A stretch of 53,850 nt of DNA from Candidatus Microgenomatus sp. (GTDB lineage Bacteria; Patescibacteriota; Microgenomatia; UBA8517). The notes below the pieces were generated by a model, which saw only the letters and a program-made list of their open reading frames with translations, was not told where the DNA came from and did no database searches. The translations under genes were made by a program, and so were the position numbers. This document shows positions 16,132 through 29,085 of the stretch, piece by piece; within the stretch, counting starts at the first letter, position 1, and each line of letters begins with the position of its first letter. Location of the stretch: the NCBI GenBank assembly GCA_020724555.1, contig DYGT01000001.1:1-53850 (forward strand), given 5' to 3'.

Positions 16132-16925
16132 CATGATGTTACTCAAATTTTCATTTGAGATCAGACTATATCTTCATCTTGCTATGAAGCTCCACGAGCT
16201 CACGCTCGTGGTTTCTTCTCAGCTCAGCTTCACAGATCAAAAGCTGTTCAGCTTTTGCTGATAAACTTTAGGAGTTGTTGTTTTTTATATTTTCTTTTTC
16301 CCGCACAATTCATTTGATAAGCTAAATCAATCACTTCATTTAAATATTTTTTATTTAAATGGTGTTTTGAAACAACAAGCTTACAGATCTTTGAAAATAA
16401 AAGAAAATCGTTTTTTTTTTGAAGTCTTAAGTCTATATTTTTCAAAATGAGGAATTATAACTTTAGTCAAATCATTGATCGATCTAACTTCGTATTTATA
16501 ATTTTGATCCTTCTTTGAAAACCTTATAGAACCTACACCAAAATAATTTCTTATTTCTCTAAGCACTGAAAGATTTCTCCTGTGCTGAGAAATAGAAAAA
16601 CTTGGTCTGACTTCAATATTTGTTACCATCTTACTTCTACGGTTAAAGGAAACACAAAAACTTCCTTCACCGTCAGTAAAACCGGTAATATAATTTTCAA
16701 ACTCCATGGTCTTTTTTTAATGCAAGAGCTGGCGTATTTCCCGACTTAGTCGGGACTCACCTTTCGGCTCAGTCGTTACGGCTCGATCACTTAGCATAAA
16801 GCATAATAATCTTGCCTCGGTATTGGCATACTCGTTTAACTTAATAGTAGCACGAGTTTAGCTTTCACCGATATTAGCCAGTTTACTTTCCACACATCGC
16901 TGTGGGTTCGGGCAAATTCCACTTT
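16132..16925 (-). mobile_element. Group I intron inserted after U1951 (E. coli 23S numbering), 794 nt
   Basis: The 5' exon ends ...CTTGTCGGGT (U). The intron ends ...GAAGATATAGTCTGATCTC...AACATCATG (terminal G). The 3' exon resumes AAGTTCCGACCCGCACGAA. AGATATAGTC is the conserved group I P7/P3 core motif. Confidence 0.75.
16248..16707 (-). pseudogene. LAGLIDADG homing endonuclease ORF split by a frameshift in an A10 run
   Basis: ORF 16381-16707 (MEFENYITGFTDGEGSF...HFEKYRLKTSKKK) and ORF 16248-16445 (..KKNDFLLFSKICKLVVSKHHL...GKRKY) together align along the intact paralog at 17011-17538. The frames switch inside T10 at 16411-16420. Confidence 0.7.
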
Positions 16926-16959: not shown

Positions 16960-17704
16960 CATTTATGTTAACTCCGATTCTCATCGGAGATCGGACTATA
17001 TCATTCCCGATTAAATCGGGACTTGGCGTGTAGTCTCTGGGGATTCCAAAACATCACTAATTGTATATTTTCGAGTTCTCCCTTTTCCTTTATTAATCTT
17101 TTCTCTAATTTCAAGCAATTCTTTTAAGCCTTCATCAGTAAGATGGCGCTTATCGTACATAATTTTTACTGCTCTTTTAAAAAGCGAAAAATTATACTTT
17201 TTATTGTTTGAAAAAAAATTATATTTATTAAAAAAAGGAATTATTCTTTCCTGAAGTGCTGTTGGATTTGTAACATCATAAGAATACAATCCATCTTTTC
17301 GTCTCTTAATGATTCCGCATTTAAAATGCCTCTTCATAAGAATCAGAATAGTTATGTCTCTTTGTGAAACATTAAATGATAGCACTGGTTGCCATTTCTG
17401 TTTATAATCTTGTTTATAGCGAAGAGAAATATTAAAACTTCCCTCACCGTCAACAAAACCTGCAAAATACCAACCAATCTTTTCAGGAACACTTACTCGA
17501 AATTGTTTTGGTCTTTCCTGCTGATTATCTCTATTCATCTGATTTTCACTTCTGATAAAACTTAAAATAAGTCTATCAGCAGTACAGATGACCTGTCAAG
17601 ATTTTCCAGCATATAGCCAAGTTTTTCCCCGCCCTTGGCGGGGGAATAGCGAATATCTATGAAATTTATTAATCATAGAGCTATTCTCAACTACTATGTT
17701 ACTA
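16960..17704 (-). mobile_element. Group I intron inserted after U1917 (H69 loop) of the 23S, 745 nt
   Basis: The 5' exon ends ...GGCAGCAGTAACTAT (U). The intron ends ...GATATAGTCCGATCTCCGATGAGAATCGGAGTTAACATAAATG (terminal G). The 3' exon resumes AACTGTTCTACGGTAGCGAAGTTCC. Only 34 nt of exon (16926-16959) separate it from the U1951 intron. Confidence 0.75.
17011..17538 (-). CDS. LAGLIDADG homing endonuclease (single-motif type), intron-encoded
   Basis: 175 aa with the motif WYFAGFVDGEGSFNISL. It lies entirely inside the U1917 intron. Confidence 0.85.
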   Translation of the reverse strand: MNRDNQQERPKQFRVSVPEKIGWYFAGFVDGEGSFNISLRYKQDYKQKWQPVLSFNVSQRDITILILMKRHFKCGIIKRRKDGLYSYDVTNPTALQERIIPFFNKYNFFSNNKKYNFSLFKRAVKIMYDKRHLTDEGLKELLEIREKINKGKGRTRKYTISDVLESPETTRQVPI

Positions 17705-18605: not shown

Positions 18606-19208
18606 GAGTCGAACTTCCTTTCAAACTTAGTTAAAATTTAGAGGCCTTAGCTGAAAGTCTGGGTTGTTTCCCTTTTGTCCCGGAAGCTTAGCCCTCCGGG
18701 GCTGTCTATTCTGCGTGCCGTAGCAGTATTCGGAGTTTGATTGAGATACCTCGCTTACGCTCAGCACCCCATCCAGTAGCTCTACCCCTGCTACGTTTTT
18801 GCTAGAACACGGTCCCTATAGACCTTTCGGGGAGAACCAGCTATCTCCAGGTTCGATTGGCATATTACTCCTAACCACAAGTCGTCCGAGCAAATTGCAA
18901 CTTACAACGGTTCGGGCCTTCCCCCGATTGTCGTCGGGGTTCACCCTGCTCATGGTTAGATCACCTGGTTTCGGGTCTGTAACATAGTACCTTAAGCGCC
19001 CTTTTAAGACTCGGTTTCCCTCTGCCTCCCCCCGTGAGATAGGTCCAAGCCGAAGTGGCTATGGACACATCTCACGGGGTTAAGCAAGCACTATGAAACA
19101 ACTCGCCGGTTCATTCTTCAATAGGCACGAGATCATCCCGCTAAGCGGGACTCTCTCGGTTTGTTCGCAAACAGTTTCAGGTACTATTTCAACGGGCTTA
19201 CAGCCCTG

Positions 19209-19247
<39 letters not shown>

Positions 19248-19746
19248 TACCAACTATATTTAGCCTTGGAGGATGGTTCCCCCAGATTCCCACGGTGTAT
19301 GTGCACCGTAGTACTCAGGAAATCCCTAGAGCCCCGTGAGATTTTGCGTACGAGATTTTCACTCTCTATGATTGGCTATTCCAAGCCATTCCGCTATCTT
19401 ACGGGGTCCCACATTGGGCTCCTACAACCCTCCGATAGCCCCAAAAGGGATCATCGGAGTTTGGGCTTTTGCCATTTCGCTCGCCGCTACTGAGGCAATC
19501 TCGCTTGATTTATCTTCCTCACCCTACTTAGATGTTTCAGTTCGGGTGGTACCCTTCCACTTGCTTAATATTCTGCCAAAGGCAAAAACTTGGGCAAGGG
19601 ATGATCCCGAGTAACCGGGACCGGGTTGTCCCATTCGGAGACCGCCGGGTCACAGGATCAAGACTCCTTTCCGGCGACTATCGCGGTCTTGTGCGTCCTT
19701 CATCGGTAGTTGATACCAGGGCATCCACTGTCTGCGTTTTGTAAAA

Positions 19747-19767: not shown

Positions 19768-19906
19768 ATGTAAAAGAACAACGTCTTTCAAATAAACTAG
19801 TAACCAGCGACTCGCGTCTGATCCACATTTCAGCGCCAGTCGCCGTTTACCAGTTTACTTAAATTATTAATGATCCGATTCCGCAAAGCGGAAAATTCAA
19901 GTCCTG

Positions 19907-19980
19907 TGGACCTGACCGGGCTCGAACCGGTGACCTCTACATTGCAAATGTAGCGCTCTAGCCAACTGAGCTACAGGCCC
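19907..19980 (-). tRNA. tRNA-Ala (UGC)
   Basis: GGGCCTGTAGCTCAGTTGGCTAGAGCGCTACATTTGCAATGTAGAGGTCACCGGTTCGAGCCCGGTCAGGTCCA folds as a cloverleaf with anticodon loop TTTGCAA and the G3:U70 identity pair. No CCA is encoded. Confidence 0.9.
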
Positions 19981-20002
19981 CGTTCAGTCAGGTTCAAAGT
20001 AC

Positions 20003-20025
20003 AAAAAACCGACTCTTTGAGTCGG
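20003..20025 (-). terminator. Intrinsic-terminator-like hairpin between the rRNA promoter and tRNA-Ala
   Basis: Minus strand reads CCGACTC-AAA-GAGTCGG followed by TTTTTTG. It lies 23 nt upstream of tRNA-Ala. Confidence 0.45.
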
Positions 20026-20157
20026 TAGACCAACTTGAAGCTATTTATTCCGCTATAAACGCCCCAAAAGGGCATATTTATTGGTTATGTTTATTCGAAT
20101 GCTTCTCATTAAGTTTCCGAACTCAAAAGTTTCCTGGTAATTCCAGGAGGTAAGTGC

Positions 20158-20186
20158 ATTATACACAGGCAGACTACCCTCGTCAA
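20158..20186 (-). promoter_or_regulatory. Near-consensus sigma70 promoter facing tRNA-Ala-23S-5S
   Basis: Minus strand reads TTGACG (20186-20181), then a 17-nt spacer, then TATAAT (20163-20158). Confidence 0.55.
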
Positions 20187-20332
20187 CTCTAATCTAAATT
20201 AAGTACTATAGGTTGACTTTTAACTTAAAAAGCTAAAATGCGGGCATATTCACAAACTCGTGAATCCCCCTTTTTGCATTTGCAGGAGGGGTGTACGTTC
20301 AAAACAAAATAAGCAAAAAAGGAGTTGTACCG

Positions 20333-21571
20333 ATGAAACGTGGACTGGTAAGTGTAATTCTAGCGATCGCAATTCTGGTCGCTTGGGGCAACCTTTCAGT
20401 TGCCAAAGCACAAGGTAACGAACAACTTGCCACCGAACTCGGTCTTGTAAATGGCGCAGGGCAGATTGTCAATCAGTCTGGTGCCGTCTACTTCGACCCC
20501 CGTGGCAAAACGTTTAGTGTTACCGTTCCCGAAGGCTGCACAGCCTTATGGATCATCGGGTATGATACCGATAAATACGGTGACGACAGATCCCAAGGTT
20601 GGCGCGTAAACTGGGACGGTGGCTCGCTGGTTCTCCATTCAAAAAACAATGAATGGGTCGGGACCTCCGTGAACATAATGGGGCCGAACGAAATTTTGTT
20701 CGATAGCGGCGGCGATTCCCATGGAGCCAACGTTTCCCTGAATTGTTCACCACAGGATCCCTCAAATCCTACGCCGCAACCCACCCCGACTGATGAGCCA
20801 GAGGAACCTATCGTTCCTTCGGAACCAGAGGTCGAACTTCCGGTGAACACCATGTTCTGCCGGATGCCGAATACATTCGGTCTTGAACTGGGAAAATATT
20901 CCATGTTCAATCGTCCTATCGTCGAGGTCAAAGCCGAAGGTGTTGAAGTGACCATCGTCACCAATCAATCTTGGGAAACCGGCCCGTACCGAATCTATGG
21001 CGAAAACGGCCTTGTTGCCGAATTTACCATGGAGGTGGGTCGAGACGCCACGGGCAGCATCACTGGAATCAGCTGCGAACCAGCTTCCAAGCCGGAAGCA
21101 ACTGTTTTTCCCAGCACGTCGTGCTCAGAGGGATGCCCTCCAGCCATGGACGAGCGACCGAACGAGTACGGTCGCTACTGGCATTTTGATGGACTTGAAT
21201 ACATTGAGTCCTTCAAAGAGTTTGCTGTAGTAACCGTAGATGGGTACTATGTGCGCGCCGAAAAGCGTGAAACTCCGTTTGGACCCGTCTGGTATGTGGG
21301 TTCATTGAAACCGGGATTTATGGTCCAAGGCATGCGCCTGTCGGACCTTGCGCACTACCCTGGCCCGTGCAGCGTAAGCGTGGAGCTTACGCAGGTCGCG
21401 GTATATGGCGACCAGTGGCTGATCGAAGTCCTTCCTGGCCAATGGCCCAGCGTTTGGACCGAGTTCGGTCGCAGGGTGGGCTTTACTGAGGAGCTGAGTC
21501 TTCTCATGCTGCCTCAAATGGCACGCCAAGGAAGCATGATCGCTTTCTACCCGGAAAGTTTCAAAAATTAA
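20333..21571 (+). CDS. Secreted hypothetical protein (GC-rich island 2)
   Basis: The ATG at 20333 lies 8 nt after GGAG; the supplied GTG 20291 start is less likely. Signal peptide MKRGLVSVILAIAILVAWGNLSVAKAQG, with a Pro/Thr/Glu linker PSNPTPQPTPTDEPEEP. About 55% GC by hand counts. No family recognised. Confidence 0.6.
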   Translation: MKRGLVSVILAIAILVAWGNLSVAKAQGNEQLATELGLVNGAGQIVNQSGAVYFDPRGKTFSVTVPEGCTALWIIGYDTDKYGDDRSQGWRVNWDGGSLVLHSKNNEWVGTSVNIMGPNEILFDSGGDSHGANVSLNCSPQDPSNPTPQPTPTDEPEEPIVPSEPEVELPVNTMFCRMPNTFGLELGKYSMFNRPIVEVKAEGVEVTIVTNQSWETGPYRIYGENGLVAEFTMEVGRDATGSITGISCEPASKPEATVFPSTSCSEGCPPAMDERPNEYGRYWHFDGLEYIESFKEFAVVTVDGYYVRAEKRETPFGPVWYVGSLKPGFMVQGMRLSDLAHYPGPCSVSVELTQVAVYGDQWLIEVLPGQWPSVWTEFGRRVGFTEELSLLMLPQMARQGSMIAFYPESFKN

Positions 21572-21594
21572 CTTTTGCTTACTTATATGAACGG

Positions 21595-21661
21595 CCGCCT
21601 GGGGTTGAGAGTTGTCTTAAATACTTAGTATTTAACTCTCTTCTCTCAGGCGGATTTTTTT
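21595..21661 (+). terminator. Rho-independent terminator
   Basis: Long hairpin with outer stem CCGCCTG...CAGGCGG and inner stem GAGAGTT.../AACTCTC, followed by A and then T7. Confidence 0.7.
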
Positions 21662-21785
21662 AATTTATATTTGACCTGACACAACTACTCAAATATCTGG
21701 GCCGTGGGGTATATTATAATTTTTTTATTATTTATCCTCTTCAAAAGCGTTTTTTATGCTTAAAAAATTAACATACTTAAAATAA

Positions 21786-21814
21786 TTGTCATACAAGACT
21801 TATTAAGTTAAAAT
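21786..21814 (+). promoter_or_regulatory. Promoter for the tRNA-Ile / GIY-YIG array
   Basis: Reads TTGTCA, then a 17-nt spacer, then TAAAAT. It ends ~22 nt before the first tRNA-like sequence. Confidence 0.5.
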
Positions 21815-21836
21815 AATTGCGCACACACGCACACAG

Positions 21837-21891
21837 GGGTGTGTAGCTTAAGTTGGTTAGACCTGCCTGCCGGCAGGCAGGGCGCTGATAA
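21837..21891 (+). pseudogene. Crippled 5' portion of tRNA-Ile carrying a 20-nt palindrome
   Basis: GGGTGTGTAGCTTAAGTTGGTTAGA equals nt 1-24 of the intact copy apart from one substitution and one extra A. It is followed by CCTGCCTGCCGGCAGGCAGG, then GCGCTG--ATAA, which continues into the anticodon loop with 5 nt missing. Confidence 0.6.
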
Positions 21892-21895
21892 ATAT

Positions 21896-22117
21896 ATGAA
21901 TTATTTTGTTTATATCCTATATAACAAAATTGACAAAAAGTTTTACACTGGTACAACCAACGATTTATTACGCAGATTGATAGAACATAATAAAATTAGC
22001 GGTAGCACTAACACAACAAAATATAGATCGTCATTCATCTTAGTGCACGCTGAAGAATGTAGTAACCGTAACTTTGCTAGAACAAAGAGGAAAATTTTGG
22101 AAAAGCGGATATGGTAG
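21896..22117 (+). pseudogene. GIY-YIG nuclease-family ORF, copy 1 (degenerate, frame-disrupted C-terminus)
   Basis: Sequence MNYFVYILYNKIDKKFYTGTTNDLLRRLIEHNK... The in-frame stop is at 22115-22117. The +1 frame from ~22098 continues KSGYGRELRNKFVKNTGV, which is homologous to the C-terminus of copy 2, and stops at the TAG inside the intact tRNA-Ile (22156-22158). The conserved PW is replaced by SSF. Confidence 0.55.
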
Positions 22118-22147
22118 AGAGCTGCGAAACAAATTTGTTAAAAATAC

Positions 22148-22224
22148 GGGTGTGTAGCTCAGTTGGTTAGAGCGCTGTCCTGATAAGACAGAGGTCCTTG
22201 GTTCGAATCCAAGCACACCCACCA
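22148..22224 (+). tRNA. tRNA-Ile (GAU), intact, with encoded CCA
   Basis: GGGTGTGTAGCTCAGTTGGTTAGAGCGCTGTCCTGATAAGACAGAGGTCCTTGGTTCGAATCCAAGCACACCCACCA forms a canonical cloverleaf with anticodon loop CTGATAA. Confidence 0.9.
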
Positions 22225-22229
22225 ACTCC

Positions 22230-22478
22230 ATGCCTTGGTATACATATATACTCAGAAGTATTAAATCCGGTAAACATTATATAGGCTCAACTAATAACAT
22301 AGAACGTAGGCTACAAGAACACAATAGCGGAAAGACCAAATCAACACGAAATAAAGGACCTTGGGAAATCATTTATACTACAGAGAAATACAAAACCAAA
22401 ATTGATGCAAGAAAACGAGAACTTAAAATAAAATCCTATAAAGGAGGCAAAGCTTTTAAAAAATTAGTTCAGGGTTAG
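22230..22478 (+). CDS. GIY-YIG nuclease-family protein, copy 2 (catalytic domain only, 82 aa)
   Basis: MPWYTYILRSIKSGKHYIGSTNNIERRLQEHNSGKTKSTRNKGPWEIIY...ARKRELKIKS shows the GIY..YIG..R..EHN..E pattern. The ATG lies 5 nt after the tRNA CCA. The TAG stop lies in a tRNA D-arm-like GGTTAGAGCG. Confidence 0.85.
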   Translation: MPWYTYILRSIKSGKHYIGSTNNIERRLQEHNSGKTKSTRNKGPWEIIYTTEKYKTKIDARKRELKIKSYKGGKAFKKLVQG

Positions 22479-22551
22479 AGCGCCCCGCCGATGGCGGGGA
22501 GGTCCTTGGTTCGACAAAGCACCTGCTTTGCTCATTTTCCAAGCACACCCA
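22465..22551 (+). pseudogene. Crippled tRNA-Ile-like 3' portion (D arm to acceptor 3' strand)
   Basis: Reads TAGTTCAGGGTTAGAGCG, then CCCCGCC-GAT-GGCGGGG, then AGGTCCTTGGTTCGA, then a 24-nt insert CAAAGCACCTGCTTTGCTCATTTT, then CCAAGCACACCCA. The 5' acceptor strand is missing, the anticodon stem is closed onto GAT, and the T loop is interrupted. Confidence 0.55.
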
Positions 22552-22615
22552 CAAATTAGAACGGTCCGATTAAACCGGAATAGTACGAAGCAAAATACGA
22601 TAGTATAATAGTGTT

Positions 22616-24760
22616 ATGCAAAACGACCACCTTACGACACTATATTTAAAAGTTCCGAGAAACTCCGAAACCACACCAGAATCTGCTCAAACATTTCTGG
22701 CAACGCTAACTCAGATCAATTCTGTAACCAATTGGCAGAGGATCAGGGGTATGCGGCCCGAAGCATTATCCTTAGAAATAGTCTTAATCAACCAGCAAAT
22801 CCATTTTGCCATCACCTGCAGCAGAAGCTTAGCTCCTTTTGTCGAAACACAACTTCGCTCCAACTACCCCCTTGTAATTATTGAGTACGGAGCTGACCCT
22901 ATTGGCGACCGCGAATTGGAAGTCACCACTTTGACAACCAGAAAAGGTAATTACTATCCACTTGCTACTTATTCAAGCTTCCAAGATATAGATCCCCTTT
23001 CTTCGGTTCTGTCTGTTCTATCTAAAGGAGACCCGGATGAATTTGCTATTATCCAATTTGCCTTGGAAAGCACAAGTACCGGCTGGCAAAGCGCAGGTAA
23101 CAAATTTGCCGACACCGGAGGGGGTAAAACTGAAGAAGGAACTTATCTCAAACATCCGGATGAATCCATCATAAAAGAAAAAGTTTCGTACCCAGGTTTT
23201 AAATGTTCTATTAGGCTTGGTGCAAACTCAAAAAAAACCCTAACAGAAATCAAAAGTGCCATGGGAGTTTACACCAGAAGCGATGGTAATTCCCTTTCCA
23301 CCAAAAGTTCTTCTTTTTTTAAACGAGGAAGCTCCAAAGAGTATTTAAAAAAAAGAATGGTGACTGGACGCGATATCTTAAATATCGTGGAGCTGGCTAC
23401 CCTTTGGCATTTGCCAAACGAAAAAATTAAAACTGCAAGTATTGTGTGGGGCACATCTGTTCTTTCAGAGCCCCCTTCTAATCTTCCAATCTCTTTAGAC
23501 TTAAAAGAAGAAGATAAAAAAACGATCAATTTTTTTGCTAAAACTCCTTTTAAAAACCATGAATCTATTTTTGGCATCAAAGATCACGACCGTCGCCGCC
23601 ATATGTGGGTTGTAGGAAAAACCGGAACAGGAAAATCTACTATGATCGCCAATATGGTAATTGACGATCTTAAAAAAAATCGCGGTGTAAGTGTCATAGA
23701 CCCTCATGGAGATCTTTGTGAAACAGTCTTGGATTATATCCCCTCTCATAGAATTAATGACGTAGTGTACTTTAATCCTGCAGATCGTGACTTTCCCATT
23801 ATTATCAATCCTCTGGAAGTCACAAACCGTGAGGAAGCAGAACTTGTGGTTAGCGGCATTATGGCGGTATTCACCAAGGTGTGGGCCAATGTATGGAGCG
23901 CACGCATGGAATACATTCTTCGCAACTCTCTTTTGACATTGGCTCAAATTGACGGCACTACGTTGGCTGATGTTTTAAGGCTTTTAGCAGACAAAGGTTA
24001 CCGTAACAACGTCCTGCAAAAAATTGACGATAGAAACCTAATTGATTTTTGGAAGACGGAATACGACCAAATGCCGGATCGCCTGCAAAAAGAAGCCATT
24101 GCCCCTATCCAAAACAAAGTCGGACAATTTGTTACAAGCCCCATGATCCGCCGTATCATTGGCCATCCCAAAAGCACTATCCAAATAGACGACGTGATGA
24201 ATGAAGGAAAAATAATGCTTTGTAATTTATCTCAAGGAAGGCTAGGTGAGGACAATTCCGCCCTTCTTGGGGCCGTGTTGATCACCAAATTTCAACTCGC
24301 AGCCATGCACAGAGTGGAAACACAGGAAGACACACGCGTAGATCACTATCTATATGTCGACGAGTTTCAAAATTTTGCCACTCCTTCATTCATAAAAATT
24401 TTATCAGAAGCCAGAAAATACAGACTAAGCCTGATGCTTGCCAACCAGTATATGGCACAAATTCCCGAAGAAGTACAAAAAGCAATCCTGGGTAATGCCG
24501 GCACCCTCATTAGCTTTGCTATCGGGGCTGAAGACGCGGCCATTATCCACAAAGAATTTGCCGAGGTGTTTAGTGAAAACGATTTAGTTAACCTCAGTAA
24601 TTTCCAGATTGCCATAAAGCTTATGATTGACGGTCATGCTGCGAGGCCGTTTTTGGCAAACACCTTGCCGCTTCCGGCTTCACGAAACCAAAACCGAGAA
24701 AAAGTGTTAAAGGTCTCACGCGAGCGCTGGAGCTTAAAAAATAACTCAAATTCCGGGTAG
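22616..24760 (+). CDS. HerA/VirD4-like P-loop NTPase (DUF87-type ATPase core with a TraD/TraG-type C-terminal region) and an unknown ~330-aa N-terminal domain
   Basis: Walker A WVVGKTGTGKST followed by VIDPHGDL; Walker B LYVDEFQNF followed by ARKYRLSLMLANQYMAQI. No TM helices are evident. Confidence 0.7.
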   Translation: MQNDHLTTLYLKVPRNSETTPESAQTFLATLTQINSVTNWQRIRGMRPEALSLEIVLINQQIHFAITCSRSLAPFVETQLRSNYPLVIIEYGADPIGDRELEVTTLTTRKGNYYPLATYSSFQDIDPLSSVLSVLSKGDPDEFAIIQFALESTSTGWQSAGNKFADTGGGKTEEGTYLKHPDESIIKEKVSYPGFKCSIRLGANSKKTLTEIKSAMGVYTRSDGNSLSTKSSSFFKRGSSKEYLKKRMVTGRDILNIVELATLWHLPNEKIKTASIVWGTSVLSEPPSNLPISLDLKEEDKKTINFFAKTPFKNHESIFGIKDHDRRRHMWVVGKTGTGKSTMIANMVIDDLKKNRGVSVIDPHGDLCETVLDYIPSHRINDVVYFNPADRDFPIIINPLEVTNREEAELVVSGIMAVFTKVWANVWSARMEYILRNSLLTLAQIDGTTLADVLRLLADKGYRNNVLQKIDDRNLIDFWKTEYDQMPDRLQKEAIAPIQNKVGQFVTSPMIRRIIGHPKSTIQIDDVMNEGKIMLCNLSQGRLGEDNSALLGAVLITKFQLAAMHRVETQEDTRVDHYLYVDEFQNFATPSFIKILSEARKYRLSLMLANQYMAQIPEEVQKAILGNAGTLISFAIGAEDAAIIHKEFAEVFSENDLVNLSNFQIAIKLMIDGHAARPFLANTLPLPASRNQNREKVLKVSRERWSLKNNSNSG

Positions 24761-25933
24761 TATATCAATTGTGCCAAGCATTGCCTCAAAAATTATTTCA
24801 TTTTCGTCTGACATATTATCAGTAAAAGCAATTTGCATTAATTTACCGTTATACCAAACAGCTACAAAACTATACCATTCTCCATTGAGCTGACCTTTAA
24901 CTACGTGGGCAATTTCACTATCCACGCTCCGCAGGTCTATTTTTGGCTGAATTTTCCAACCGGGTAAGTTTTTAATAGAATTAATTAACTCCGCAGGCGT
25001 CATGTCCCCCTGGTCTCCCACTTCAAAAGTGATATGGGGCACATCTGATTCACCTTTATGAATAAGTAGTTGGCCATCCTGCTCCAAAGCCTGCCAATCG
25101 GAAGGGATTTTTATATCAAACCCCATGCCGGATTCATAATCACGCCAGTCATCTGTTAAATCTTCATCAAAAGAAAGGCTTCCGTAAACACCTTCAAAAA
25201 TTTCATCATAAGAAGCGTCCAAAAGGCTGATTAAATAAAACCTATCTGGACCTTCAAAGCTTAGCTTTTTAATGAATTTGGTTTGGCCTACTTGAGTTAT
25301 TTTTTGTAAAATTGCATCGTAACCTGAAACTGTTATTAATTCCTCTTCAACATCATCTCTAGCGTCTCCTTTCTGGTAGAGATTATTCCCAGACACCTCA
25401 AGTGCAATTACCGCTCCCTTGGGATCTTTGCATAAAGACTGGACGTCGCTTTCTATAGACAGCGCCGGAAATAAATACAAATCAAGCTCGCATTCCACCA
25501 ATGCCATATTTTCAGGATATGCAAATGAATAAGAAAGGTCAGAATTAAAATAAATTTTATTTTTAACAACTACTTTAGGGGTGGGTGCGGGGGTCGCAGG
25601 TATGAGGGTAGGCATAACAATATTTGTAGGAGCCTTAGGAAGACTGGACTTTAGGTACTCGTTTGTAAAATAACCTGCCAAAAAAATCGTAGCCAAAACA
25701 AATAGCGCCGGGATGATAAACATAAATTTACTCATGTGATTCCGTTTTGCTGGCCTGTTATTTTGCAAAACCATTGTTTGAGGTGGAATATTAACACCGG
25801 CAGGCGGTGTTGGTGCGGGAGGAAAATTCGCAGGCTCCACAGGCGGACTTACCGGTTGAGGCGGATTTTCAGGCTGAATTTCAATTGTTTTAAAACTGGG
25901 GCGGCGAGCAGGATCCATAACTTTTATTATCAT
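24746..25933 (-). CDS. Single-pass membrane protein with a Pro-rich cytoplasmic N-terminus and a large external domain (hypothetical)
   Basis: The start is taken at ATG 25933 (MIIKVMDPARRP...), because the supplied start at 26008 overlaps the 16S terminator. TM segment FMFIIPALFVLATIFLAGYF. No family recognised. Confidence 0.5.
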   Translation of the reverse strand: MIIKVMDPARRPSFKTIEIQPENPPQPVSPPVEPANFPPAPTPPAGVNIPPQTMVLQNNRPAKRNHMSKFMFIIPALFVLATIFLAGYFTNEYLKSSLPKAPTNIVMPTLIPATPAPTPKVVVKNKIYFNSDLSYSFAYPENMALVECELDLYLFPALSIESDVQSLCKDPKGAVIALEVSGNNLYQKGDARDDVEEELITVSGYDAILQKITQVGQTKFIKKLSFEGPDRFYLISLLDASYDEIFEGVYGSLSFDEDLTDDWRDYESGMGFDIKIPSDWQALEQDGQLLIHKGESDVPHITFEVGDQGDMTPAELINSIKNLPGWKIQPKIDLRSVDSEIAHVVKGQLNGEWYSFVAVWYNGKLMQIAFTDNMSDENEIIFEAMLGTIDILPGI

Positions 25934-26004
25934 AACAAATGAAACATTGTTTTGCTTTTGTGAAAAGATATATACCAACAATATATATTCATAAATTTTT
26001 GCCC

Positions 26005-26031
26005 ACAAAAAAATCCCGCTTGCGACGGGAT
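26005..26031 (-). terminator. Rho-independent terminator downstream of the 16S rRNA
   Basis: Minus strand reads ATCCCG-TCGCAAG-CGGGAT followed by TTTTTTTG. Confidence 0.6.
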
Positions 26032-26069
26032 AATTTTGTTGCTTTTTGAGGAAATTTAACTTTAACCTC

Positions 26070-26089
26070 CAATATGCGCCTGTAAAACG
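26070..26089 (-). promoter_or_regulatory. 3' strand of the 16S processing stem
   Basis: CGTTTTACAGGCGCATATTG (minus strand) pairs with the leader CAATATGCGTCTGTAAAGCG (28968-28949). It is 20 bp with two G:U or mismatch positions. Confidence 0.6.
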
Positions 26090-26235
26090 AATTTGGTTTT
26101 ATCGCAAACCCGTGCGGATCTGGTTTAGTTCGCCCTCAAAAGGGCCAGTCAATCCATGATCTAAAAACTGGGGTGTCATTATTCACTCCTTAGAAAGGAG
26201 GTGATCCATCCGCTCCTTCCAGAACGGATACCTTG

Positions 26236-26838
26236 TTACGACTTAATCCTCATCGCTGGATTCAGCTTCTCCCGCAACCTGCGGGATTCGGCTGCCCCCA
26301 ACTTTGCTGACTTGACGGATTGCGCTTCATCTAGATTATTGCGCGTTCCCGCTCCGGCGTGCGGCTTTCCCGCACCGGGCGAGCCGTAATGCTTGTTCAT
26401 GCTCAATTTAAACTCAGTTATATACTTGAGTTCATCTTTGGTAAGTTTGCGTATATCCTGCCTGCCTTTTACTACCTCAGCTATGCTGCAAAAAGCCTCA
26501 AAACTTTTTGCTTTGTAGCCTAATAGTTTGTGTTTTTGAAAAAACGGAATAATTACATTATAAATATCATCCCTTTTTGTAACTTCAAAAACATAAGCCG
26601 GCAATCGACCATTTTTAGCCGATTTCTTTTGATATACACTACCTATTCCAAAATATTGTTGAATACTTTCCAACAAAGGTTTATTTCCAATTGCTTGCGA
26701 GATAAAAAATCGTAAATCGATTCTGTTATTTTTTCGCAAAACAACTAAAAAACAACCCTCACCTTCAGTTAACCCAACAATGTATTGAGCCAAGAACATT
26801 ACGTATTTCCCTTCATCATTCATATTTTCATAGTACAA
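26236..26838 (-). CDS. LAGLIDADG homing endonuclease encoded in the 16S insertion
   Basis: Motif YIVGLTEGEGCFLVV; the rest aligns with the 23S intron ORFs (IIPFFQKHKLLGYKAKSFEAF...). There is no stop inside the insertion. The frame runs 82 nt into the 16S 3' exon and ends at the TAA of GGATTAAGTCGTAAC. Confidence 0.8.
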   Translation of the reverse strand: MYYENMNDEGKYVMFLAQYIVGLTEGEGCFLVVLRKNNRIDLRFFISQAIGNKPLLESIQQYFGIGSVYQKKSAKNGRLPAYVFEVTKRDDIYNVIIPFFQKHKLLGYKAKSFEAFCSIAEVVKGRQDIRKLTKDELKYITEFKLSMNKHYGSPGAGKPHAGAGTRNNLDEAQSVKSAKLGAAESRRLREKLNPAMRIKS

Positions 26839-27166
26839 ATATTACCCGAAAATATCAATGACTAATATGGAATCTGCTGACTTCCTTGCAAGCAATTATC
26901 TAGTAACTCACAAGGATCTCCCTGGGTCGCAGCAATTTCTGTTCCTGACATGAATGAAAAGCTTAATTTCGCAACTTCCTTCCGACCGCCCAACAGAAGT
27001 CGCTGTGCTTGTTTTTATTCATCCCTGCCATTTGTCTCACGCCCTCCACCCTTTTCAGTTACCTAAAAAGGACTGCGATTATTTTTTTTGACTATTCACC
27101 CCGTTCTACGGGGCAAAATGGGATTTTAACCCACTAGAAATTACTACTGCCAGGCGCGTTGTGCTT
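26318..27166 (-). mobile_element. 849-nt insertion in the 16S decoding centre (between C1402 and C1404, E. coli numbering; boundary ambiguous by 1 nt)
   Basis: The conserved GTACACACCGCC is followed by AAGCACAACGCG..., and the conserved sequence resumes as CGTCAAGTCAGC after ...GAAGCGCAATC. The boundaries lack the U(-1)/terminal-G signature seen in the two 23S introns. Confidence 0.7.
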
Positions 27167-28535
27167 GGCGGTGTGTACAAGACCTGAGAACGTATTCACC
27201 GCGGCATAGCTGATCCGCGATTACTACCAATTCCACGTTCAAGCCGCCGAGTTGCAGGCGGCTATCCCCACTGAGAGGCCGTTTGATGGGATTAGCTCCG
27301 CGTTTCCGCTTGGCAACCCATTGTCGGCCCCATTGTAGCATGTGTGTAGCCCCGGATATAAGGGCCATGCTGACCTGACGTCGTCCCCACTTCCTACCCG
27401 CATAGCGGGTTAGTCTCCCGAGAATATTTAACTCAGGACAGGGGTTGCGCTCGTTACCCCACTTAAGGGAACACCCCACGGCACGAGCTGACGACGGCCA
27501 TGCAACACCTGTGTAATCCCTGTCAACAAAGTTGACATTCCAACCTATCTCTAGGCGGCATTAAGAATTACATGTCAAACCCGGGTAAGGTTCTTCGGTT
27601 CGTTTCGAATTAAACCACATGCTCCACTGGTTGTGCAGGTCCCCGTCAATTCCTTTGAGTTTTACGCTTGCGCGCGTACTCCCCAGGCGGCTCGCTTCAC
27701 GCGTTAGCTTACGCCCATGATCCCATCCATTACCTGTAACAAACCAGAAATATAAAATTCATACAGAGAATGGATGGGACCAGGGGCTAGCGAGCATCGT
27801 TTACGGCTAGGACTACAGGGGTCTCTAATCCCTTTCGCTACCCTAGCTTTCGTCCCTGAGCGTCAAAGAATCCCTAGCTACCCGCCTTCGCCCTTGGAAT
27901 TCCTACCGATATCAACGGATTTCACCCCTACACCGGTAGTTCTAGTAGCCCCGAGATCTTTCTATCCTGGCAGTATTACATCCCCTCCTGAGGTTAAGCC
28001 CCAGTCTTTGAAATGTAACTTACCAAGACGCCTGCGAACGCTTTACGCCCAATAAATCCGGGCAACGCTTGCACCCTCCGTATTACCGCAGCTGCTGGCA
28101 CGAAGTTAGCGGGTGCTTATTCGCCATAGACTCTCACCTATGGCAAAAGAAGTTTACGACCCGAAGGCCTTCATCCTTCACGCGGTGTCGCGGCGTCAGA
28201 CTTTCGTCCATTGCGCACGATTCCCAGTTGCTGCCACCCGTAGGTGTATGGCCCGTGTCTCAGTGCCATTCTGGGGGGCCACGCTCTCACGCCCCCTAAC
28301 CGTCATTGTCTTGGTAGGCCATTACCCTACCAACTAACTGATGGTACGCAGGCTCCTCTCTCGGCGAATAGTTACATCCTTTCTCCCATCCTTCATCTGG
28401 GAAGACAATGTTACCATTATCTCACCAAAAGAAGGATGGGGCTTATGCGGTATTAACCCCGCTTTCGCGGGGCTATTCCCCACCAAGAGGTAGATTCCTA
28501 CGCGTTACTCAGCCGTTCGCGACTCCCTGTCCATC

Positions 28536-28799
28536 TTATGCTCTATTCAAACTATTACTGATTCTTAATTTCAGCTGTCTATATGAACTAGAAAACTTCT
28601 TCAAATTATTTTCTCTTTTTATGCTATCTTTCTTTGATAAAAAAGCTTCATAATAAACAAGTTTCCAAGGAATACCATATTTAGTAGATTTGTTTAAACC
28701 TTTGTTATGTTCATTAAATCTTTTTTTTAAATCTCTCGTAGAACCAATATAAATTCTTCTTTGGTATTTAGAACTTTTTAAGATATAAACATAATTCAT
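28536..28799 (-). CDS. GIY-YIG nuclease-family protein, copy 3, inside 16S helix 6
   Basis: Sequence MNYVYILKSSKYQRRIYIGSTRDLKKRFNEHNKGLNKSTKYGIPWKLVYYEAF...IKRENNLKK. The supplied ORF start at 28835 is an upstream in-frame ATG that abuts the rRNA stem. Confidence 0.8.
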   Translation of the reverse strand: MNYVYILKSSKYQRRIYIGSTRDLKKRFNEHNKGLNKSTKYGIPWKLVYYEAFLSKKDSIKRENNLKKFSSSYRQLKLRISNSLNRA

Positions 28800-28835
28800 A
28801 TTTATAAAATTATATGGCATTTTTATAAAGCACAT
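28536..28835 (-). mobile_element. 300-nt insertion forming the loop of 16S helix 6, consisting almost entirely of the GIY-YIG ORF
   Basis: It is closed by a perfect 11-bp stem, CCCTGTCCATC (28846-28836) with GATGGACAGGG (28535-28525). These sit where h6 lies, between GCAAGTGGAACG and AGTCGCGAACGGCTGAGTAACGCG. Confidence 0.7.
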
Positions 28836-28948
28836 GATGGACAGGGCGTTCCACTTGCATGCTTAATGCACACCGCCAGCGTTCACCCTGGGCCAGGATC
28901 AAACCCTCAAAAAGTGACGAGAACATGTGTTTACACAGTTCGTCTTTA

Positions 28949-28968
28949 CGCTTTACAGACGCATATTG
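28949..28968 (-). promoter_or_regulatory. 5' strand of the 16S processing stem
   Basis: Pairs with 26089-26070 (see that feature). Confidence 0.6.
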
Positions 28969-29056: not shown

Positions 29057-29085
29057 ATTATACATGGCATTTCCCGTAAGGTCAA
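29057..29085 (-). promoter_or_regulatory. Near-consensus sigma70 promoter for the 16S rRNA
   Basis: Minus strand reads TTGACC (29085-29080), then a 17-nt spacer, then TATAAT (29062-29057). It lies ~145 nt upstream of the 16S 5' end. Confidence 0.55.

Follow-up and report, generated by a model that had tools for sequence, protein, structure and literature searches.

A GIY-YIG gene enclosed by an RNA-selected stem in helix 6 of a Patescibacteria 16S rRNA gene: a probable non-intron intervening sequence

Helix 6 (h6) of the 16S ribosomal RNA (rRNA) gene of Candidatus Microgenomatus sp., a bacterium belonging to the candidate phyla radiation (CPR, Patescibacteria), is occupied by a 322-nt cassette in which a GIY-YIG open reading frame (ORF) is enclosed by a long closing stem. 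The cassette lies in a 53,850-nt stretch of contig DYGT01000001.1, hereafter the window, whose rRNA genes are on the minus strand. We consider, with a probability of about 0.85, that this block (28525-28846) is an ORF-bearing, non-intron intervening sequence (IVS). It has the attributes of such elements: it replaces the tip of a peripheral helix, its ends form a duplex of at least 20 bp, it contains no ribozyme, and it is sporadic among close relatives. Its parts are the following:

28525-28846, minus strand: whole cassette of 322 nt, the unit that is present or absent relative to the syntenic contig L197; the alignment breaks at 28524/28525 and 28846/28847
28825-28846, minus strand: 5' arm of the closing stem, with an outer 11 nt CCCTGTCCATC (28846-28836), an A-A mismatch at 28835 and an inner 10 nt TGTGCTTTAT (28834-28825)
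28525-28546, minus strand: 3' arm of the closing stem, with an inner part ATAGAGCATA (28546-28537) that overlaps the last codons and the stop codon, and an outer part GATGGACAGGG (28535-28525)
28536-28799, minus strand: GIY-YIG ORF of 87 aa plus TAA, a predicted minimal nuclease of the Slx1/UPF0213 type that retains Tyr, Tyr-Ile-Gly, Arg, His-Asn and Glu
28800-28835, minus strand: AT-rich leader of 36 nt without a Shine-Dalgarno motif; an ATG at 28835-28833 is in frame in the window and is not conserved in relatives
28809-28814, minus strand: TATAAT hexamer, a candidate -10 element, 9 nt upstream of the ATG

On the minus strand, the order is ...GGAACG, CCCTGTCCATC, 300 nt, GATGGACAGGG, AGTCGCG.... 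The flanks of the cassette map between positions 68 and 100 of E. coli rrsH, and in the Rfam alignment 301 nt are inserted into the hairpin at model positions ~69-86 of the 16S; the two methods agree with the placement in h6 given in an earlier note made from the sequence alone. That note had also described a perfect 11-bp stem around exactly 300 nt, holding an intact 264-nt GIY-YIG ORF, a 36-nt leader and a TAA against the stem, and all of this was confirmed. The outer arms (28846 to 28836 and 28535 to 28525) are perfectly complementary over 11 bp and enclose 28536-28835, and the ORF, which begins MNYVYILKSS, runs from 28799 to 28536 (87 codons plus TAA), with its stop codon at 28538-28536 abutting the outer 3' arm. 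The full closing stem is 23 bp long, since 10 inner pairs (28834-28825 with 28546-28537) follow beyond the A-A mismatch and two pairs are added by the flanking 16S sequence; as a whole it contains two 1x1 mismatches. Because the stem extends past the A-A mismatch, the stop codon and the last codons lie within the helix. Compared with shuffled sequences, the fold of the cassette has a z-score of -5.5.

Starting from the in-frame ATG at 28835, the ORF would have 99 aa and fill the whole loop. This longer frame is open in the window only: it contains a stop in L001, and L004 and L006-L008 have TTG or no ATG at the corresponding position. The extension being closed by a stop in relatives, the 87-aa form is the conserved protein. 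A leaderless mRNA that begins at this first ATG after an RNase III cut at the base of the loop was also considered and rejected, because neither the ATG nor the frame is conserved.

The limits of the insert were obtained from an empty allele. Contig L197, a 2-kb metagenome sequence, is syntenic with the window, has the same tRNA-Glu and is 89.7% identical to it over 707 nt (the first 68 nt of the 16S gene plus upstream sequence). Its 16S flanks are identical to those of the window (100% over 43 nt and 46 nt), and in place of 28525-28846 it holds an 18-nt hairpin, GTCCCGTTTCGGCGGGAC; empty-h6 rDNA of this type contains GGAACGGTCCCGTTTCGGCGGGACAGTCGCG. An empty h6 in related genomes, which the earlier note had suggested looking for, therefore exists. 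Because the limits of the indel are exact, the stem belongs to the insert and the native hairpin has been replaced entirely, so that the earlier view of the stem as that of h6 itself does not hold. No target-site duplication at h6 was detected in the comparison of L197 with the window. More than 120 empty alleles have the same flanks, and all of them contain hairpins of 6-7 bp or slightly longer. The possibility of a native h6 stem with the ORF in its loop was rejected, as the 6-7-bp hairpins of the empty alleles are unrelated to the stem and the L197 indel includes the whole of it. The h6 sequence of L124, CCTTGTCTTCGGACAAGG, resembles the outer arm of the window and was tested as a possible deletion derivative; its 16S gene, 86% identical to that of the window over 187 nt, is no closer to the window than those of other empty alleles.

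Cassettes at the same site are present in 12 other distinct sequences (L001, L004, L005, L006, L008, L010, L011, L014, L055, L065, L078 and L087), whose proteins are 45-86% identical to that of the window. The nearest relatives of the cassette belong to Beckwithbacteria, Levybacteria and Microgenomates-group assemblies. The recurrence of the same architecture at the same site in 12 other assemblies is more than chance. Moreover, the ORF is intact in all 13 sequences and is under purifying selection, with a ratio of nonsynonymous to synonymous substitution rates (dN/dS) of 0.06-0.18; it is a real coding gene, as the earlier note had it, and not part of a neutral expansion. Metagenome-assembled sequences can be chimeric, and an insert of this kind could be suspected of being an assembly artefact or a decaying, functionless pseudogene. 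Such an explanation is barely credible: 13 distinct sequences, assembled independently and drawn from JGI, ENA and NCBI, have the same architecture, and a pseudogene is already refuted by the 13 intact ORFs, the dN/dS values of 0.06-0.18 and the compensatory changes in the stem.

In a neighbour-joining tree based on ~600 nt of the 16S gene, filled alleles are scattered among empty ones, and each filled 16S gene has some empty relative that is closer to it than any other filled one. The identity between a filled 16S gene and its nearest empty counterpart is 88% for the window (L143), 90% for L005 (L118) and 93% for L004 (L147); that between the filled alleles of the window and L001 is 82%. The identity of the cassette proteins tracks that of the 16S genes (r = 0.76). 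Repeated loss and transfer among relatives both fit this distribution, and the best explanation is that the cassette is a discrete unit, inherited horizontally as well as vertically.

The closing stem is under selection as RNA. In an alignment whose register was chosen for best pairing, a choice that favours pairing, 94.3% of cells are paired and changes on both sides occur in 21 of the 25 pairs; none of 500 shuffles reaches this level, and slid registers pair at most 51%. Among 52 distinct stems of the family, G-U combinations outnumber A-C combinations by 95 to 15 (p = 2e-15), although the scoring treats both alike. It follows from this excess that the helix is selected in the sense-strand RNA and not as a DNA palindrome, and the asymmetry rules out that the stem serves only as terminal inverted repeats of the DNA. 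The RNA that bears the stem must be the read-through host transcript, because a transcript begun inside the cassette has no 5' arm. Selection at the RNA level, as deduced from these sequences, would suit a helix that serves processing or insulation and speaks against an inverted repeat acting at the DNA level alone.

The cassette might still be a selfish element that acts purely at the DNA level, for instance a free-standing homing gene or a tiny transposon whose ends are recognition sites of the nuclease and whose RNA stem is incidental. The patchy distribution, with empty 16S relatives closer than filled ones, would suit such an element, as would the C-run...CAC and GTG...G-run stem ends common to unrelated host sites and the partial tRNA duplications that flank tRNA-linked copies (see below). 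However, a strand asymmetry of 95 G-U to 15 A-C is not expected of a DNA palindrome or cruciform, the tRNA-linked copies are mostly stemless, h6 shows no target-site duplication and the protein is without a DNA-binding domain. As the sole explanation, a DNA-level element is decidedly improbable; as an additional layer, it is compatible with the IVS interpretation.

A permissive Rfam search of 28400-28950 gave no match to a ribozyme in the h6 insert at E<=10. Searches of the same kind elsewhere in the rRNA operon, used as positive controls, detected Intron_gpI at 16142-16329 (43 bits) and 16972-17191 (34 bits), and a group-II D1-D4 match was obtained at 26808-26903 (30.5 bits); the intron-like matches of the operon adjoin LAGLIDADG ORFs. 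Since ribozyme remnants are detected elsewhere in the operon, the h6 insert is different in kind: it is a non-intron element. The noncoding sequence inside the outer 11-bp stem amounts to 36 nt, and the earlier claim that there is no room for a ribozyme was thus borne out. One could still think of an intron whose exons are ligated by an unrecognised mechanism (a new small ribozyme or protein-dependent splicing) to give a continuous 16S rRNA, given that other inserts of the operon are intron-like and that Rfam holds described families only. Against this, 264 of the 300 nt are under coding constraint, what remains is the stem plus ~24 nt with no Rfam match, the stem has single 1x1 mismatches only and no bulge-helix-bulge, and all 30 GIY-YIG-bearing inserts in the survey by Tsurumaki et al. 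(2024) are also non-intron. We therefore regard such an intron as very improbable.

We propose the following mechanism. At the DNA level, the cassette has taken the place of the entire native h6 hairpin in the 16S gene. In an rRNA precursor transcribed across the cassette, the two ends of the insert would pair into a helix of ~23 bp, which would stand in for h6 and therefore allow the 16S rRNA to fold normally. A helix of ~23 bp is of the length and kind cut by RNase III, and its likeliest fate would be excision without religation, giving a 16S rRNA in two parts that base pairing holds together, ~80-90 nt on the 5' side and ~1.5 kb on the 3' side. The 87-aa nuclease would be made from the excised RNA or from a transcript begun at the cassette's own -10 element, which would be leaderless or nearly so. 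Purifying selection preserves the nuclease, whose probable action is on DNA, in the service of the maintenance or spread of the cassette. The chances that this full mechanism, including cleavage by RNase III, is correct appear somewhat better than even. The earlier note had posed a dilemma, namely that the element either persists as an expansion segment doubling as an mRNA or is cut out; excision without religation is indeed the best-supported fate, but the dilemma omits the third option of an own -10 element near the ATG.

Signals that could drive expression were found in the family. Of 87 upstream regions, 21 have the motif TGnTAnnnT with its end 5-9 nt ahead of the ATG, against 0.8 expected, and the spacer peaks sharply at 6 nt. 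This spacing corresponds to the geometry of an extended -10 element that would start transcription at the ATG and yield a leaderless mRNA. Cassettes in non-CPR hosts have GGAG-type Shine-Dalgarno motifs instead. In the window, a Shine-Dalgarno-like motif precedes 5 of 23 long ORFs according to a crude start-codon heuristic, which is not discriminating. Use of an internal promoter by the window copy seems plausible, at slightly less than even odds.

The 87-aa protein matches the Pfam GIY-YIG model (PF01541) with E=1e-14 and 55 bits, against a curated cutoff of 22.6. Residues Y5, Y17, G19, R27, H31, E51 and E63, which are conserved across GIY-YIG domains, are invariant across 24 sequences. By sequence, the nearest solved structures are the UPF0213 proteins BH0048 (1zg2, E=2e-11) and EF2693 (1ywl), with weaker matches to Slx1 and I-TevI (E=3e-3 for the latter); the score against the group I intron endonuclease model TIGR01453 is 26 bits, under the cutoff of 56. 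The AlphaFold model has a predicted local distance difference test (pLDDT) score of 87 and superposes best, using Foldseek, on BH0048 1zg2, Slx1 and At-HIGLE; for Slx1, the template modelling (TM) score is 0.63-0.68 and the root-mean-square deviation 1.6-2.4 Å. The protein is thus predicted to have the GIY-YIG alpha/beta fold. A separate DNA-recognition module is not present, as the 87 aa comprise the catalytic domain and short C-terminal helices. The cassette has the distribution of a homing gene, as divergent hosts have it at the same site and empty alleles occur among relatives; a homing-like role of the predicted nuclease is nevertheless a tentative suggestion that we hold to be rather unlikely. 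The UPF0213/COG2827 family to which the nearest structures belong is large, with 25,047 cluster representatives at E<=1e-3 and 5,626 at E<=1e-10.

Several points, to which the chosen register of the covariation alignment should be added, weigh against the proposed mechanism or parts of it. The candidate -10 element of the window is a bare TATAAT that is separated from the ATG by 9 nt and has neither a TG nor a -35; lacking a -35, it was missed by a two-hexamer promoter scan. A promoter inside the 16S gene would also yield 5'-truncated 16S transcripts, which is a cost. Without a separate DNA-recognition domain in its 87 aa, sequence-specific homing by the protein is doubtful. The signature motif of an RNase III gene was not found in the 53-kb window, the rest of the genome being outside the search. 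Finally, h6 is the spur of the 30S subunit, peripheral and solvent-exposed, so that a retained extension of 300 nt is physically conceivable. In that case, the 322 nt would stay in the ribosome as an enlarged h6 spur, insulated by the stem, with the ORF either untranslated or translated from another transcript; as a clamp, the stem would be selected in the sense RNA equally well. We consider retention unlikely, because RNase III has a canonical substrate in a near-perfect duplex of ~23 bp, H25 and H45 of the 23S rRNA, which are known sites of IVS excision (PMC4990558, PMC11270868), hold cassettes of the same family, and inserts of CPR bacteria have been reported to be removed from transcripts (PMC11270868, citing Brown 2015).

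The h6 cassette has relatives at other sites. We analyzed 80 related loci, one genome per species, and assigned their contexts via BLAST against the window rRNA, aragorn and Rfam. The ORF lies in an rRNA gene, in or abutting an RNase P RNA gene, or within ~350 nt of a co-oriented tRNA gene at 52 of the 80 loci, distributed as follows:

16S helix 6: 7 loci of 80
Other 16S sites: 5 loci, at ~h17 (L013), the tip of h44 (L009) and E. coli positions 137-243 (L032, L038, L061)
Just upstream of the 16S 5' end: 1 locus (L039)
23S: 10 loci of 80
RNase P RNA: 4 loci, with an Rfam match abutting the ORF in L031, L073 and L074, and L024 assigned by the GGAAAGTCC motif only
Within ~350 nt of a co-oriented tRNA: 25 loci of 80

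The embedded copies and many copies outside recognised RNA genes share one plan. A stem of 18-28 bp has a 5' arm ending 10-16 nt short of the ATG and a 3' arm that begins in the last codons, so that the stop codon is embedded in the 3' arm. Whatever the host site, the outer ends of the stem are alike, a C-run followed by CAC pairing with GTG and a G-run. Those copies linked to tRNA genes, including both in the window, are mostly without a stem. Approximately 25 stem-bounded relatives are "orphan" loci, located in no RNA gene recognised by Rfam. In three orphans from Saccharibacteria (L016, L022 and L023), the helix continues into the host flanks (ATGTGG...CCACAT), a hint that the host could be a structured RNA not yet described.

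The 23S sites include E. coli 540-553 (H25) in seven loci and 1164-1245 (H45) in one. Carriers outside the CPR include Deferribacter thermophilus BMA, Tindallia, Desulfobacterales, Synergistetes and Dehalococcoidia. The non-CPR cassettes in 23S genes (L048, from the cultured D. thermophilus BMA, L026, L053, L060, L080, L081 and L086) are located at E. coli 540-553 (H25), 1164-1245 (H45), 268-290 and 1854-1875 and have a Shine-Dalgarno motif instead of the -10; L048 contains two cassettes in one 23S gene. Those associated with RNase P RNA (L073 1964-2562, L074 3001-3758, L031 1005-1632, and L024) are in or at the 5' part of the RNA, and GGAAAGTCC comes immediately after their 3' arm. In L073 and L074, the 5' strand of P1 is upstream of the cassette and its complement is at the 3' end of the RNA; therefore, the cassette lies in helix P3. 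L038 and L061, from Peribacteraceae and Peribacteria assemblies, have a GIY-YIG cassette of ~250 nt in the 16S gene at E. coli ~137-243; no insertion sequences were reported in the 16S genes of Peregrinibacteria (PMC11270868).

Among the tRNA-adjacent ORF copies, 29 of 30 are co-oriented with the tRNA. The tRNA is downstream of the stop codon in 21 copies, with a gap of 4-88 nt in 20 of these 21. In eight of 28 tRNA-adjacent relatives (L018, L027, L043, L050, L052, L070, L076 and L088), a stretch of 12 nt or more from the neighbouring tRNA is duplicated nearby, and in six of the eight the duplicate is the 5' part of the tRNA, located upstream of the ORF (positions 1-36 of tRNA-Trp in L070). 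The resulting layout, a 5' tRNA fragment followed by the ORF and a complete tRNA, is the footprint also seen in the window, where no GIY-YIG copies or remnants were found beyond the h6 cassette and the two copies in this list:

21896-22117, plus strand: GIY-YIG copy winA, 30 nt upstream of tRNA-Ile, without an enclosing stem
22148-22224, plus strand: intact tRNA-Ile(GAU), between winA and winB
22230-22478, plus strand: GIY-YIG copy winB, 5 nt downstream of tRNA-Ile, with its stop codon in a partial copy of tRNA-Ile

All three GIY-YIG genes of the window are thus in or against stable-RNA genes, as the earlier note had pointed out, and this generalises to the 52 of 80 related loci. The note had further taken the likeness of the 5' junction of the h6 insert to 21888-21916 as a sign of recent kinship between the rRNA-borne and the tRNA-borne copies. 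The likeness is present, but recent relatedness was not supported: the three copies share 39-41% of residues and 50-55% of nucleotides, and the ~25 similar nt at their starts are due to the conserved N-terminus (M-x-Y-x-Y-I-L) and AT-rich upstream sequence. Judging by these identities, the three copies would be old paralogues or separate arrivals. Partial tRNA-Ile copies lie outside winA and winB (21836-22555, plus strand). The first (21836-21862) consists of the 5' 25 nt of tRNA-Ile followed by a GC hairpin, and the second (22464-22555) covers the tRNA from its D arm onward to the 3' end; its anticodon arm is altered, and 23 nt are inserted in its T loop. A block of GIY-YIG, tRNA-Ile and GIY-YIG, bringing a replacement tRNA, seems to have interrupted a tRNA-Ile that was resident there.

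Taken together, the h6 insert could belong to one widespread class of parasites that encode a protein and inhabit structured-RNA genes, a speculative reading that we rate as doubtful. Each member, of ~300 nt, would combine an RNA-selected closing stem, its own expression signal (an extended -10 element and leaderless mRNA in CPR bacteria, a Shine-Dalgarno motif elsewhere) and a minimal Slx1-like GIY-YIG nuclease. Such elements would settle in the hairpin tips of 16S, 23S and RNase P RNA, and a stemless form, accompanied by partial tRNA duplication, would settle in tRNA genes. Host RNase III or tRNA processing would free both the host RNA and the cassette, and the structure-specific nuclease would drive hairpin-for-hairpin replacement in the DNA. 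If true, selfish genes would have, in addition to introns and inteins, a third means of residing in an essential gene without harm.

The rRNA operon of the window contains other insertions. Its 16S gene starts at 28914 and runs downward, the 23S gene occupies 19754-15207 (4548 nt versus 2925 nt for the model) and contains two LAGLIDADG ORFs beside sub-threshold group I intron matches, and the 5S gene is also on the minus strand. The Rfam match to the 16S gene ends at 27118, ~930 nt away from the actual 3' end, GGATCACCTCCTT, at 26195-26207; the extent of the gene is as follows:

26192-28914, minus strand: host 16S rRNA gene, true extent, including the h6 cassette and an insert of ~840 nt (~26326-27165) with a LAGLIDADG ORF

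The ~840-nt insert follows ...TTGTACACACCGCC (~27166), and helix 44 resumes at ~26325. It contains the LAGLIDADG ORF 26236-26838, which reads on into the 3' exon, and the group-II D1-D4 match at 26808-26903, and it corresponds to the "16IS9" type at position ~1400 (PMC11270868). The hairpin next downstream of h6 (28385-28440, minus strand; arms CCCATCCTTC and GAAGGATGGG) has a loop of 37 nt versus 3 nt in the Rfam model and is a second, ORF-less expansion of this 16S gene. In the 5' part of the 23S gene (19030-19342, minus strand), a 10-nt inverted repeat, ATCTCACGGG and CCCGTGAGAT, has arms 254 nt apart with no GIY-YIG ORF between them, and could represent either an insert without an ORF or a normal helix of the 23S. 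A TTGACC-17-TATAAT sequence (11 of 12 matches) at 29057-29085 on the minus strand, ~143 nt upstream of the 16S 5' end, is a candidate promoter of the rRNA operon. The spacer between the 16S and 23S genes (19980-26190) is ~6.4 kb long; its tRNA-Ile is inverted relative to the operon, and only tRNA-Ala (19906-19980) keeps the operon orientation. It also contains an ORF for a VirD4/TraG-like coupling protein (22616-24760, plus strand) and two large ORFs at 20291-21571 (plus strand) and 24746-26008 (minus strand). The spacer may be an integrated mobile element.

Inserts of this kind lengthen the 16S genes of CPR bacteria, break the assumptions on universal primers and length, and mislead rRNA annotation. 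If the stem is cut, the small-subunit rRNA would be in two pieces, which matters for RNA-based surveys and for work on ribosome structure. The cassette places a protein gene inside an essential RNA gene without a ribozyme, by means of its own insulating or processing helix. The pattern seen in the family (rRNA helices, P3 of RNase P RNA and tRNA genes) suggests a general strategy, and also a testable function for the large, uncharacterised UPF0213/COG2827 family.

GIY-YIG ORFs in rRNA inserts of CPR bacteria are known. Tsurumaki et al. (2024; PMC11270868) surveyed 380 16S and 348 23S genes of these bacteria and found such ORFs in 15 16S and 15 23S inserts, none of them resembling either type of intron; the ORFs were judged to be sparse, without enrichment at any site and outside a homing context, and some non-intron inserts were suggested to be RNase III-type IVSs. 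As cited there, Brown (2015) described GIY-YIG ORFs in rRNA inserts of CPR bacteria and the removal of inserts from transcripts. Because GIY-YIG ORFs in non-intron inserts are already published, the h6 cassette belongs to a published kind, with which it shares the host group, the PF01541 domain, the absence of a group I/II signature and the location at the tip of an rRNA stem-loop. PMC11270868 gives no anatomy, whereas the present analysis describes a recurrent h6 site (13 sequences), a covarying, RNA-selected stem and a filled/empty pair, and adds purifying selection, a -10-like element and relatives outside CPR bacteria and outside rRNA. In the searchable literature, we found neither the cassette anatomy, the RNA-level selection of the stem, the recurrent h6 site and the filled/empty pair nor the extension to RNase P RNA, tRNA genes and non-CPR 23S genes; searches on GIY-YIG with RNase P RNA, tRNA adjacency or Patescibacteria returned nothing relevant.

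Regarding its protein, the cassette resembles the UPF0213/COG2827 proteins (BH0048, EF2693) and the Slx1 domain in encoding a stand-alone catalytic domain of ~90 aa. These, in contrast, are described as chromosomal genes or as the subunit of a structure-specific nuclease, and not as residents of RNA-gene helices. With intron-encoded and free-standing homing endonucleases such as I-TevI and the Seg proteins of phage T4, the cassette shares the GIY-YIG fold, the association with conserved genes, including tRNA genes, and a patchy distribution; SegB, for instance, lies in the tRNA cluster of T4. However, I-TevI and the Seg enzymes are 200-250 aa long and have a separate DNA-binding domain, whereas the cassette protein has none and is not located in an intron.

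The 23S rRNAs of Salmonella and Leptospira carry IVSs that are excised by RNase III. Like these, the cassette is a selfish insert at the tip of a helix, with a long duplex at its ends, no ribozyme, a sporadic distribution and an optional ORF. The 23S IVSs differ in their host molecule and in their ORF, which encodes a four-helix S23p/23S_rRNA_IVP protein, whereas the cassette resides in h6 of the 16S rRNA, encodes a GIY-YIG protein and would be cleaved by analogy. Helices H25 and H45 of the 23S rRNA are the classical sites of RNase III-excised IVSs (PMC11270868; for H45 in Coxiella, PMC4990558). The H45 IVS of Coxiella burnetii is 428 nt long, contains an ORF (S23p) and is excised by RNase III, which leaves the 23S rRNA fragmented (PMC4990558). 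Its ORF is decaying and apparently not translated (PMC4990558), whereas that of the h6 cassette is under strong purifying selection.

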